Positions 29,828 to 35,975 of a stretch of 64,000 nt of DNA are shown piece after piece. The notes under the pieces were generated by a model. It did not search any database, had not been told where the DNA came from, and saw nothing but the letters and a program-made list of their open reading frames with translations. The stretch's first letter is position 1. Each line of letters begins with the position of its first letter. Origin of the DNA: an uncultured Spirochaetota bacterium (GTDB lineage: Bacteria; Spirochaetota; Spirochaetia; SZUA-6; Fen-1364); assembly GCA_963745235.1 (NCBI GenBank), contig CAVUXE010000058.1:64001-128000 (forward strand), given 5' to 3'. A program made the position numbers and the translations under genes.

Positions 29828-30559
29828 ATGACATCCCTCGGAGCCGAGACGATATTCAGTTTCGCAGGATTCCGAGCGCCAAACACCCTCTTGGCGACGC
29901 TCGTCGTGGATGCCGTGATCCTTCTCCTCGTGGTCGCCGTGCGCCGGCGGATAGCCCTGGTGCCCGGGCGGTTCCTGCAGTCGGTGGAAGGAGTCGTCGA
30001 CTATCTGAAGACCACCGTTGACCAGGTGGCGGGCGTCCGGTCGGGAATGATCTTTCCCTGGGTCGCCGTCTTTTTCATCTATATACTGTTCAACAATCTC
30101 ATGGGTCTCCTGCCGGGCTTCGGCTCAATCGGGTTCCTGCGGGCCGCGGAGGACGGCGGGCAGCGGTTCGTTCCCATTCTCCGCGGGGCGACATCGGACC
30201 TGAACGTGACTCTCGCCCTGGCAATCGTGTCTGTGTTCGCAACACACATTCTGGCCATCAGGACCACGGGGCTCGTGGACTATCTCAAGAGGTTCTTCGC
30301 CCTGAACCCGATATTCCTCTTCGTTGGCCTGCTGGAAATCGTCCAGGAGCTGACAAAGTTCATCTCCTTTTCATTCCGCCTCTTCGGCAACATCTCGGGC
30401 GGAGAGATCGTGCTCGGCACCGTCGCCGCGATGTTTGCTTTCCTCCTGCCTGTCCCGTTCCTTGCCCTCGAGATCCTCGTCGGCGTGGTCCAGGCGGCAG
30501 TTTTCGCGCTTTTGACCATGGCATTCATGGCAATACTGACGGAATCATCTCATCACTGA
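29828..30559 (+). CDS. atpB: F0 ATP synthase subunit a
   Basis: NLMGLLPG, ATSDLNVTLALA, SFSFRLFGNI (essential Arg), LEILVGVVQAAVF. Confidence 0.95.
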   Translation: MTSLGAETIFSFAGFRAPNTLLATLVVDAVILLLVVAVRRRIALVPGRFLQSVEGVVDYLKTTVDQVAGVRSGMIFPWVAVFFIYILFNNLMGLLPGFGSIGFLRAAEDGGQRFVPILRGATSDLNVTLALAIVSVFATHILAIRTTGLVDYLKRFFALNPIFLFVGLLEIVQELTKFISFSFRLFGNISGGEIVLGTVAAMFAFLLPVPFLALEILVGVVQAAVFALLTMAFMAILTESSHH

Positions 30560-30571
30560 GGGAGGGCGCTC

Positions 30572-30781
30572 ATGGTTACGTTCACAGTCACCGGCGGAAT
30601 CATCATCGCAATCGGCGGGTCTTTCCCGGCTCTCGCGGTGGGCCTGATCGGCATGAAGGCAATCGAGGCAATCGGCAGGAACCCTGAAGCCTCGGGCCGC
30701 ATCGTGCCGACCATGATCCTGGCAATGGCTTTCGCCGAGGCAATCGCAATCTACTCCCTGATATTCGCCTTCCTGCGCTGA
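30572..30781 (+). CDS. atpE: F0 subunit c (H+-type)
   Basis: IGRNPEA loop and AFAEAIAIY; no Na+-binding E-S/T signature. Confidence 0.95.
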
Positions 30782-30797
30782 TCCCCGGAGGGAAGGC

Positions 30798-31310
30798 ATG
30801 GGAGACGCCCTCGGAGCTTTCCACATCAACTGGATGCTCCTCACCGGCCAGATCATCAACTTCCTGGTCATCGGGTGGGTGCTGTATCGGTTCCTGCTGA
30901 AGCCGCTGCAGGCCAACATGAAGACGCGCAGCGAAAAAATAGCCCGGGGCCTGCAGGACGCGGAAAAAGCGAGACTGGCCCTGGATGAGGCGGGCAAGGA
31001 GAGGGAACGGGTCCTTGCGGAGGCGTATGCCCAGGCTTCCCGGATCCTGGAGCGTGCCCGCGACGAAGCCGAGCGCCTCCGCGCTGCGGCCCTGGAGCGC
31101 GCGGGAGCGGATGCGGAAAGGATGATTGTCGAAGCGCGGGGAGTCATGGCGCTCGAGCGTCAGGAGATGGAGAGGGCCATGCAGGGCCTTTCCCTCCAGC
31201 TCTCCGGGAAGATCCTCGAATCCGTGGTCACCGACCTGTTCAGCGAGGATGAGAAGGCGCGGATCGTGGCTGAAGGCATGAAGCGGATCCGGGAAGTGGT
31301 CGTATCGTGA
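30798..31310 (+). CDS. atpF: F0 subunit b
   Basis: QIINFLV...LYRFLLKP followed by a coiled coil; position in operon. Confidence 0.92.
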   Translation: MGDALGAFHINWMLLTGQIINFLVIGWVLYRFLLKPLQANMKTRSEKIARGLQDAEKARLALDEAGKERERVLAEAYAQASRILERARDEAERLRAAALERAGADAERMIVEARGVMALERQEMERAMQGLSLQLSGKILESVVTDLFSEDEKARIVAEGMKRIREVVVS

Positions 31311-33159: not shown

Positions 33160-33168
33160 GAGGGGCGG

Positions 33169-34138
33169 ATGCCGCAGAACCTCAGGACGCTGAAGTCACG
33201 GATCAGGACGGCAAAGAACATCGCCCAGCTCGCCAAGACGCTGGAGATGGTGTCCGTGGCCAAGATACGCAGGGCCCGCGGTCTTGCAGAAACGGTGCGG
33301 CCGTACGCTGAAAGGATCACGTCCCTCGGCGACACGGCGCTGCGCAGCGTGGCCCCCGGCGAGTTTGTCCATCCCTATCTCGGAGGAAGGGCGGGAGCCT
33401 CAGGTGACGGACACCCCGGAAGCCGCCCGTTGGCAGGGACGGCGGATCCCACGGAGGACCGTGGGAGGGGCGGCGGAGCCCCGTCGCGGGAAGCGCGACG
33501 CGGATGGCGGGAGCCGCCTGCTTCTCGTCATCGGCCCCGACAAGGGTCTCTGCGGCCCGCTCGTGTCGAACCTCGTGCGAAAGATGTTCGAAGAGGACAG
33601 CCCGGACGCGCAGCTCATCACGGTGGGCAAGCGCATGGAGGGGCCCGCGGCAAGGAAGGCCGGCGCACGGCTGGTCGCGTCGTTCCCCGTCGGCTCGCGG
33701 CTTCCCGAGTACTCGCTTGTGTATGACCTGGTCCTGGCCATCAACGGCTACATTCTTTCGGGCAGGGCCTCCCGGCTGGATGTCCTGTACACCCGTTTCG
33801 TCTCGTACTTCACCCAGGTGCCCACGCTGGATCACGTCCTCCCGCTTGTCCCGGAGCCTGCGCCCACGGAGCCGGAGAGCCAGCGGCCGCATACCATCGA
33901 GCCGGACCTCGCGGGCCTCCTGGAAGCGCTTCTCCCGCACTATCTCGAGGTGCGCCTGTTCGATGCGGTGATCCAGGCCTATTCTTCCGAGCACGGGGCG
34001 CGGATGGTCGCCATGCAGAACGCGAAGAAGAACGCGCTGGAGATCGCGGATTCCTTCACCCTTCTGTACAACAAAACCCGCCAGGAGCGGATCACGAACG
34101 AGATCCTCGACCTGGCCAACACAGGAAAGAGAGCATGA
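33169..34138 (+). CDS. atpG: F1 gamma subunit with ~40-codon insertion and frameshift
   Basis: [53 protein letters not shown]. Confidence 0.9.
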
Positions 34139-35556
34139 ACAAACCCGGCGGCACGAACGGCAGTCCGGGAGGGGCCGAAGGCAGGGTCATCCGGGTCCAG
34201 GGGCCCGTGATCGACGTCGAGTTCAGGGGGGAGATGCCCGCAGTCCACGAGGCCCTCCAGCTCGAGCGGGGCGGAGGCGCCCCGGCCCTGGTGCTGGAGA
34301 CCGAGTTCGTCCTGGAAAACGGGGAGGTGAGGACGCTGGCGCTGGGGCCCACCGAGGGCGTGCCCCGCGGCGCCCGCGTCATCCGCACCGGCGCGCCTGT
34401 CACCGTGCCCATCGGGGAAAAGACGCTGGGACGGATCTTCAACGTGCTGGGAATGCCTATCGACGGAGGGGCCCCCGTGGAAGGACCCGATGTGCAGCGC
34501 GCCCCCATCCATCGTCTTCCGCCCTCTCTCGCGGAGCAGCGCACAAGACCCGAGATGCTGGAGACCGGGATCAAGGTCATCGACCTGATCGCCCCATTCA
34601 CCAAGGGAGGAAAGATAGGGATCTTCGGCGGCGCCGGTGTCGGCAAGACGGTCATCGTCAAGGAGCTCATCCGAAACATCGCCATCGAGCACCGGGGCTA
34701 CTCCGTGTTTGCCGGCGTGGGGGAACGTTCGCGTGAGGGCACGGACCTGTGGCTCGAGATGGAGGAATCCAAGGTCCTGGACAAGACTGTCCTGGTCTTC
34801 GGCCAGATGAACGAGCCTCCCGGCAACAGGCTGCGCGTCGGCCTGACCGCCCTCACCATGGCGGAATACTTCCGAGATGAGAAGGGCGTCGATGTCCTTC
34901 TTTTCATCGACAACGTCTTCCGCTTCGCCCAGGCGGGCAGCGAGGTTTCCGCGGTCCTGGGCCGAATGCCGTCCGCGGTCGGATACCAGCCCACGCTTGC
35001 GGAAGACATCGGGAGCCTGCAGGAAAGGATCACCTCCACGCAGAACGGGTCCATCACGTCGGTCCAGGCAATCTACGTTCCCGCGGATGACTACACGGAC
35101 CCCGCGCCTGTGGCGATTTTCAGCCACCTTGATGCAACCATCACGCTGGAGCGCTCCATCGCGGAGCAGGGCCTCTATCCCGCCGTGGACCCCCTGACCT
35201 CCTCCTCCCGGCTTCTGGACCCGAACGTGGTCGGGGCGGAGCATTACCGCATTGCCATGGAGGTCAAGCGGATCCTGCAGCGCTACAAGGACCTGCAGGA
35301 TATCATCTCCATCCTGGGAATCGACGAGCTGTCGGACGAGGACAAGCTGCTGGTGGCGCGGGCGCGCAAGATCCAGAGATTCCTCACGCAGCCCCTGTTC
35401 GTCTCCGAGACCTTCACCGGCAAGGAGGGACGGTACGTGAAGATCCCGGACACCCTCCGCGGGTTCACGGAAATCATCGAGGGAAAGCACGACGCCCTTC
35501 CCGAGACGGCCTTCTACAACGTGGGCCCGATCGAAGAGGTGGTCTCCAATGTCTGA
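34135..35556 (+). CDS. atpD: F1 beta subunit
   Basis: [33 protein letters not shown]. Confidence 0.98.
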
Positions 35557-35975
35557 GGCTCTTCTCCCTGCGGATCATCTCCCCGCTCGGCACGGCGTTC
35601 GAGGGGCGTGTGACGCAGGCGACCCTCCCGACCCCGAACGGGGAGATAACCATCCTGGCCCACCACATGCCGATCGTTGCCGTTCTCTCCGAAGGCGAGG
35701 TGCGGATTCCCACGGACAAGGGAGAGGTGGTCATTGCCGTTGCGGGCGGTTTTCTGGACACGGACCTCGACGCCGCCACAGTGCTCTCGGATTTCGCCGC
35801 GGAGGCACAGAGCATCGAGGTTGCGCGCGTGGAGGCCGCCCGCAAGCGGGCCGAAGAGCTGCTTGCCGAAAGGAAGCAGAAGGGAGAAGTGGCCCTGATA
35901 GAGCGCGACCTGCAGCGCTCACTCCTTCAGCTCAAGGTGGCGGAGCGCTACCGCAGGCGGCGGCCGCAGCGGTGA
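35549..35975 (+). CDS. atpC: F1 epsilon subunit (1-nt indel near start)
   Basis: LRIISP...[11 protein letters not shown]...VAGGF followed by a helical hairpin. Confidence 0.9.

Follow-up and report, generated by a model that had tools for sequence, protein, structure and literature searches.

How does a spirochaete come to carry an F-type ATP synthase operon whose relatives lie among the candidate phyla radiation (CPR)? The question is raised by a complete atpBEFHAGDC operon (29828-35975, + strand) in a 64,000-nucleotide stretch of contig CAVUXE010000058.1 (assembly GCA_963745235.1, positions 64,001 to 128,000), called here the window, from an uncultured Spirochaetota bacterium. A sequence-only reading of this DNA had proposed that an energy module moved laterally from a CPR lineage into an apparent spirochaete, and phylogenetic trees, topology tests, the restricted distribution of the operon and its host-like base composition all speak for that proposal. 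We consider it highly probable that the eight-gene block was acquired laterally from a Levybacteria-like lineage of the Microgenomates group of CPR by the ancestor of two spirochaete genera, and that it encodes an enzyme of the working type.

Phylogenetic placement and distribution of the operon

The host is a spirochaete. Its genome has three matches to FlaA (PF04620), the sheath protein of spirochaete flagella, against none in 14 control genomes, and two a subunits that are 86-88% identical to the window's bear the NCBI name "Spirochaetia bacterium", so that what had been an impression from the letters now has independent evidence behind it. The genome is a metagenome-assembled genome (MAG) of 5.85 Mb in 104 contigs with a GC content of 0.61, 85.7% complete and with 5.9% contamination, and 12 studies have metagenome runs, from soil, peat or wetland, in which the stretch occurs. 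In addition to the operon, the window encodes sdhA, two malate/lactate dehydrogenases, aconitase and one complex I subunit. With FlaA, a 5.8 Mb genome and genes for the tricarboxylic acid (TCA) cycle and complex I, the host is not a CPR bacterium, and because it is a spirochaete we regard the operon as a transferred copy (a xenologue) rather than a CPR gene in place.

The alpha+beta tree (58 rows, 968 columns, LG+C20+F+G4 by posterior mean site frequency) unites seven spirochaete operons of the window's type, hereafter A-type, with seven Microgenomates-type CPR rows and two Endomicrobia rows in a single clade (100/98). Within this clade the A-type joins the CPR locus L019 (98/88), and Endomicrobia (100/98), L023 (100/100) and then Roizmanbacteria-like rows follow in that order; CPR of Saccharibacteria, Magasanikbacteria and Moraniibacteria types fall in a clade of their own. 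The same nearest neighbours, L019, Endomicrobia and L023, recur in the a+c tree (51 rows) and in the gamma+epsilon tree (49 rows, with the window's gamma left out), although in the latter the order of L019 and Endomicrobia is not resolved (37.9). All three subunit pairs thus place the A-type with Microgenomates-type CPR, as had been anticipated, and the agreement between the membrane and central-stalk trees argues that the operon moved as one piece.

Approximately unbiased (AU) tests on 32 rows rejected a topology in which the seven CPR rows form one clade (difference in log likelihood 270, p = 4.5e-5). They also rejected one in which all spirochaete F-types form one clade (difference 354, p ~1e-38), and with it the vertically inherited spirochaete clade that the sequence-only reading had set against its own proposal.

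The distribution of the A-type within the phylum is narrow. All 18 same-genus genomes drawn have a beta orthologue (85-95% identical), and 20 of the 24 other genomes of the family have an A-type a subunit, the order comprising 92 genomes. By genus, the a subunit occurs in 19 of 20 genomes of g1 and in the single genome of g166, and was found neither in the two genomes of g165 nor in the one of g167. It was found in none of the 67 genomes of the order's seven other families and in none of 400 other genomes of the phylum taken in an even draw. F-type beta subunits are encoded by 212 of these 400 genomes, and none is more than 66% identical to that of the window.

At least 15 of the 18 same-genus genomes carry a second, canonical F-type operon, the B-type (loci L107-L113 and L118), which was not found in the window's own genome. 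Its subunits are only 59-66% (beta), 25-29% (a) and 50-56% (alpha) identical to those of the window, its delta has at least 177 residues and its c subunit has an ARQPE loop. The alpha+beta tree puts the B-type far from the A-type, joined to a genome from a different family of the order (99/95), and the A-type does not group with the F-types of other Spirochaetota.

The probable donor lineage and the place of Endomicrobia

The labelled comparison set consists of the best 80 of 596 pattern matches in a scan of species-representative genomes. Among these 80, the closest relative is L019, with identities to the window of 79% in beta, 62% in alpha, 55% in a and 71% in c; the Candidatus Endomicrobiellum locus L020 (beta 73%, a 50%, c 73%) and L023 come next. 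L019 is one of nine loci (L019, L023, L029, L032, L039, L040, L047, L073 and L088) whose third-party annotation (TPA) titles read "uncultured Gammaproteobacteria" or "Bdellovibrionales". The genomes behind these records measure 0.7-1.5 Mb (1.0-1.5 Mb for L019, L023 and others), and an RpoB tree places all nine suspect records, with the genomes of L019, L023, L029, L039, L040 and L047 among them, inside the CPR clade (99); we conclude from placement and genome size together that the titles mislead. Those six genomes, L019 and L023 included, fall in a nine-row group (100) with named Microgenomates, Roizmanbacteria and Patescibacteria. In reading this tree we ignored the row of genome G015 (antisense frame, branch length 8), and the Endomicrobium genome G040 gave no rpoB match.

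Nine of the 120 closest beta relatives of L019 carry organism names: six are Levybacteria or Levyibacteriota, two "Patescibacteria group" and one "Parcubacteria". In the NCBI taxonomy, Levyibacteriota belong to the Microgenomates group. By these names the nearest donors look Levybacteria-like, so that the likeness to Microgenomates ATP synthases, which the sequence-only reading had pointed out, stands and can be narrowed. Operons of the Microgenomates group (L019, the Levybacteria-named relatives and the Roizmanbacteria locus L045) have the gene order of the window, a short delta of 92-118 residues and the same GRNPEA loop in c. They differ from it in several respects: a CPR cell has a genome of 1-1.5 Mb, whereas the host here is a respiring spirochaete of 4-6 Mb; GC at third codon positions (GC3) is 0.35-0.40 in L019 and about 0.8 here; and the gamma subunit here contains a variable low-complexity insert.

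Two Endomicrobia loci (L020 and the Endomicrobium locus L035; phylum Elusimicrobiota) carry the same CPR-type operon, with a delta of 115-118 residues. Endomicrobia appear to be a second non-CPR holder of this enzyme, in another phylum and in small genomes with a GC content of 0.25-0.32, and this suggests that the operon left CPR a second time. In a term search of the main text of PMC11257099, on horizontal gene transfer in Endomicrobia, neither "ATP synthase" nor "ATPase" occurs.

The presence of the operon in Endomicrobia raises the possibility that it is of CPR origin and reached the spirochaetes by an indirect route, through Endomicrobia or some other carrier, or that it passed from spirochaetes to Endomicrobia. 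L020 and L035 share the inner clade (100/98) and the delta length with the window's operon, the gamma+epsilon tree leaves their position relative to L019 open, and a clade of A-type plus Endomicrobia was not rejected by the AU test (difference in log likelihood 14, p = 0.094). Against this route, the CPR locus L019 lies between the spirochaetes and Endomicrobia in the alpha+beta tree (98/88), and when 120 further CPR-side sequences are added to a beta tree, spirochaetes and Endomicrobia attach at different, weakly supported points among Levybacteria-like sequences. The habitats also differ: the Endomicrobia records are, by their titles, termite-gut MAGs, and the window's operon is known from soil, peat and wetland runs. 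On balance we judge an indirect route unlikely and favor direct acquisition from a Levybacteria-like donor.

Several points nonetheless weigh against direct acquisition of a working enzyme, beginning with the AU result for the A-type and Endomicrobia just described. The AU tests were run under LG+F+G4 with fast constrained searches, and the beta tree with more sequences (FastTree) resolves the attachment point poorly (SH-like 94). A closer non-CPR lineage may lie beyond the best 80 of the 596 matches, and a single marker, RpoB, in a quick tree is what assigns the mislabelled records to CPR. Finally, gamma and epsilon are both frame-broken in the window's own letters, and no RNA run is listed among the 24 in which the stretch occurs.

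Gene flow from CPR into free-living bacteria has rarely been documented. Portions of PMC12455944 treat CPR mainly as recipients in their exchanges with other phyla. Here a complete multi-subunit machine of core energy metabolism would have moved out of CPR into another phylum, and apparently into Endomicrobia as well, and would have persisted, with its synteny conserved, while two genera diverged. What makes the case interesting is the direction of the transfer, its size, and the access to a CPR-type enzyme that it opens; the kind of enzyme is itself known. The short-delta enzyme of CPR type, little studied so far, now resides in larger, respiring bacteria, in which stalk number and the H+/ATP ratio may be more tractable, and the case illustrates how ATP synthase trees can mislead taxonomy. 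We found no report of this transfer in the literature searched, and the supplements of ATP synthase phylogeny papers may bear on the question.

The short delta subunit and the probable direction of transfer

The delta subunit of the window, at 112 residues, matches only positions 116-170 of the 172 of the OSCP profile (22.4 bits against a cut-off of 22.3). With delta lengths taken from the open frames just upstream of alpha, spirochaete A-type deltas have 112-115 residues in 10 of 10 operons, those of L019, L020, L023 and L035 have 115-118 (n = 4), Roizmanbacteria-like deltas 92-94 (n = 2) and other CPR deltas 128-138 (n = 9), with a single CPR exception of 179 residues (L088). Deltas of 92-138 residues are thus found in 15 of 16 operons from CPR or Endomicrobia, whereas all 57 remaining operons, B-type included, have deltas of at least 165. 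Judged by these lengths the short delta is a CPR trait, in keeping with the sequence-only reading, which had singled it out as CPR-like. A short delta has also been reported in CPR and other early-branching groups in a preprint (10.64898/2026.10.01.756066), parts of which link it to large c-rings or extra peripheral stalks.

The same trait bears on the direction of transfer. In favor of an operon native to Spirochaetota, whether as an ancient paralogue or with CPR and Endomicrobia as its receivers, the genus does hold two F-type operons, and the ATPase tree is unrooted. However, the A-type is confined to two genera of one family, and the short delta is present in nearly all CPR operons measured, including those of Saccharibacteria and Parcubacteria types that lie outside the A-type's clade. 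For the most part, CPR operons branch in the ATPase tree as their genomes do in the RpoB tree, and monophyly of the CPR rows without this operon is rejected. Furthermore, CPR F-types are traced in part of PMC10656485 to a common ancestor with Chloroflexi, which fits CPR as the source. We therefore regard a spirochaete origin as very improbable, and a transfer from CPR into the spirochaetes remains the reading that we favor.

What the short form lacks can be described with some precision. About 55-60 N-terminal residues of a canonical delta are missing from it (alignment A1), and an AlphaFold2 model of the window's delta (mean predicted local distance difference test 90.3) has three short helices, within about 45 residues, followed by an alpha/beta C-terminal domain. 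The best Foldseek matches of this model are OSCP/delta chains, seven of them at E <=0.001, and chains of the Chloroflexus aurantiacus enzyme are among the matches. A complex prediction for alpha residues 1-95 with the short delta scored 0.10, which lends no support to the pairing and does not bear on binding either way.

The Chloroflexus enzyme also has a shortened delta, together with two stalks and two a subunits, as described in sections of PMC12002316 (PDB 9itj, 9itk). According to the same source its N-terminal delta domain is a dimerising four-helix bundle of 85 residues, compared with about 45 residues in three short helices here. The shortened delta is the only feature that the window's operon, known from its genes alone, has in common with this two-stalk type, which is characterised by a delta dimer, two a subunits and two b dimers per complex. 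CPR F-types stand beside those of Chloroflexota in the beta tree, a pairing that is absent from the alpha+beta tree. Canonical atpIBEFHAGDC operons, as in Escherichia coli and Bacillus PS3, and the B-type have the same eight subunits, order and catalytic motifs as the window; they differ in a delta of 165-204 residues against 112 here, and atpI is missing here.

These comparisons allow a more speculative proposal, which we consider doubtful: that the spirochaetes imported a mechanistically different, "low-gear" ATP synthase, and that the operon records a past physical association with a Levybacteria-like episymbiont. If this were true, an enzyme whose delta lacks the symmetry-breaking N-terminal bundle may take up more than one copy of the peripheral stalk and of subunit a, as in Chloroflexus, or pair with a large c-ring, and either would raise the H+/ATP ratio. 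Such an enzyme could make ATP where proton-motive force is low, as in waterlogged peat and soil poor in oxygen, with the B-type serving high-energy conditions.

Integration, reading frames and gene content

The surroundings of the operon are those of the host. The order mdh1 - mdh2 - (aconitase) - atp is found in nine of nine loci, eight from genus g1 and one from genome G501 of g166; a TPR gene follows atp in most of the nine, and sdhA lies beyond mdh1 in all three genomes whose stretch reaches that far. Because this synteny is shared by both genera, the transfer predates their split. Neither the CPR nor the Endomicrobia operons have counterparts of the flanking genes (sdhA, mdh, aconitase, TPR, oxidoreductase and nuoN) beside them, which indicates that the transferred block comprised the eight atp genes only.

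Base composition follows the same pattern. The operon has a GC content of 0.641 against 0.644 for the window, and the GC3 of its genes (0.77-0.85) resembles that of their neighbours (0.79-0.88) and not that of L019 (0.35-0.40) or Endomicrobiellum (0.22). By these measures the composition of the operon is fully adapted to the host, as the drift to high GC postulated from the sequence alone would require.

A CPR fragment mis-joined to a spirochaete contig, or mis-binned with it, is an artefact that a MAG of this completeness and contamination, with frequent indel errors, might produce. The operon, though, lies inside a contig of 175,804 bases, in GC and GC3 it matches its flanks, and the same flanks recur in nine other assemblies. 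Contigs assembled from other runs, moreover, cross the upstream junction (X1 and X3) and the downstream junction (X1, X2 and X3), so that both operon edges, where the sequence-only reading had allowed for a chimaera, are bridged independently. Host-like GC3 and junction-spanning contigs together exclude a chimaeric contig, and we give an artefact of this kind next to no credence.

We envision that the whole eight-gene block passed from a Levybacteria-like Microgenomates lineage to an ancestor shared by two genera of one family, whose members are free-living, respiring Spirochaetia of soil and peat. It would have landed near the complex I operon, with TCA-cycle genes on one side and a TPR gene on the other, and would then have taken on the base composition of the host while keeping the hallmark of the donor group, a delta that lacks most of the canonical N-terminal helix bundle.

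Whether the module is intact depends on which sequence is consulted. In the window, the N-terminal 85 codons of gamma are in one frame and the remainder in another, with the change between 33423 and 33502, inside the variable low-complexity insert; epsilon opens with an ATG (35549) in a different frame from what follows, the change falling at about 35557. In same-genus orthologues gamma is whole in eight of eight loci, and epsilon is whole in all seven in which its frame was picked up, beginning MSEEF... or MPDELF.... We also compared Logan contigs from four runs of four studies of soil and peat metagenomes. Gamma is in frame in the three runs that cover it (X1, X2 and X6), where 32 nt replace the 78 nt at 33423-33502, and epsilon is in frame in all four through an indel at 35557. 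Because orthologues are whole and the contigs of other runs are in frame, we read the breaks as probable assembly errors or strain-level indels and not as decay of the operon. The description of the module as intact thus holds only once assembly frameshifts are allowed for, and fails for gamma and epsilon in the window's own letters.

Other genes of this assembly are similarly affected. The aconitase gene (27768-29688, - strand) is split in two frames, and since four of four other runs have one base fewer at 29353 the split looks like an assembly indel. The rpoB gene of the window's genome (G000:C73:99187-102555) is broken into three pieces, each matching the profile in its own frame, further evidence that indel errors are frequent.

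The host genome holds two further alpha/beta-family ATPase gene pairs, which we read as V/A-type ATPases, in addition to FliI. Both putative V/A-type A-subunit genes (G000:C99:164086-164752 and G000:C33:31378-32044) are split at Pfam position 82, with the pieces of each overlapping by 2 nt. An identical split in both paralogues could be a systematic sequencing error or something real.

The anatomy of the operon is as the sequence-only reading had described it: the atpBEFHAGDC order between 29828 and 35975, the lack of atpI, a c subunit of 69 residues, a delta of 112 and the quoted protein strings were all recovered. The eight genes are tightly packed, several with overlaps of 4-8 nt, and Pfam names every one of them, which makes the core set of F1Fo subunits complete. 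Subunit a (atpB, 29828-30559, + strand, as for all genes of the operon; 243 aa; PF00119 at 1.1e-39) starts MTSLGAETIF and ends TMAFMAILTESSHH, with the FRLFGN arginine motif readable in its translation. Subunit c (atpE, 30572-30781, 69 aa, PF00137) has the GRNPEA loop and its carboxylate in AFAEAIAIY; its loop and helix-2 motifs are common to the window, CPR and Chloroflexota, whereas ARQPE is found in the B-type and Bacillota. Subunit b (atpF, 30798-31310, 170 aa, PF00430 at 1.7e-20) overlaps delta by 4 nt. The short delta (atpH, 31307-31645) is followed by alpha (atpA, 31642-33159, 505 aa; PF00006, PF00306 and PF02874). Gamma (atpG, 33169-34138) matches PF00231 in two frames, over positions 1-58 and 73-278. 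Beta (atpD, 34135-35556, 473 aa), also named by Pfam, contains GGAGVGKT and DELSDED motifs, and epsilon (atpC, 35549-35975) matches PF02823 and PF00401 on the frame 35559-35975.

The motifs on which the function of an F-type ATP synthase depends, namely the a-subunit arginine, the c carboxylate, the alpha and beta P-loops and a DELSEED-type loop (here DELSDED), are all present. We infer that the enzyme is expressed and active, and that the A-type works with the host's respiratory chain beside the second F-type and the V/A-type ATPases of the genus. As the c subunit is without Na+-site residues, proton coupling in an F1Fo ATP synthase is the most likely mode. Na+ coupling was set aside by reference to the Na+ motif of the Ilyobacter c subunit: in the window's c the carboxylate is followed by A and I, and the residue at the helix-1 position is V. 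N-ATPases (atpDCQRBEFAG) begin with beta and epsilon, include AtpQ and AtpR and have no separate delta; the a-c-b-delta-alpha-gamma-beta-epsilon order and the separate delta of the window reject that identity.

Upstream of subunit a there is no atpI, and the neighbour on that side is the aconitase gene, on the opposite strand and ending at 29688. A sigma-70-like promoter match lies at 29789-29818 (+ strand; TTGACG, an 18-nt spacer and TATATT), agreeing with the consensus at 10 of 12 positions; it is a consensus match only, and three such promoter-like sites were seen against 0.7 expected. Only 10 nt separate the end of its -10 element from the atpB ATG at 29828, so the transcript may be leaderless or the true start may lie elsewhere.

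Two further features vary or recur across the genus. The low-complexity insert of gamma, after HPYLG (33380-33510 in the window; loci L002-L010), is variable in length, and gamma accordingly ranges from 281 to about 350 residues. Near sdhA, the malate/lactate dehydrogenase genes form an adjacent pair of paralogues (25855-26778 and 26775-27698, - strand), 39-45% identical in cross-matches, and the pair is kept across the genus.

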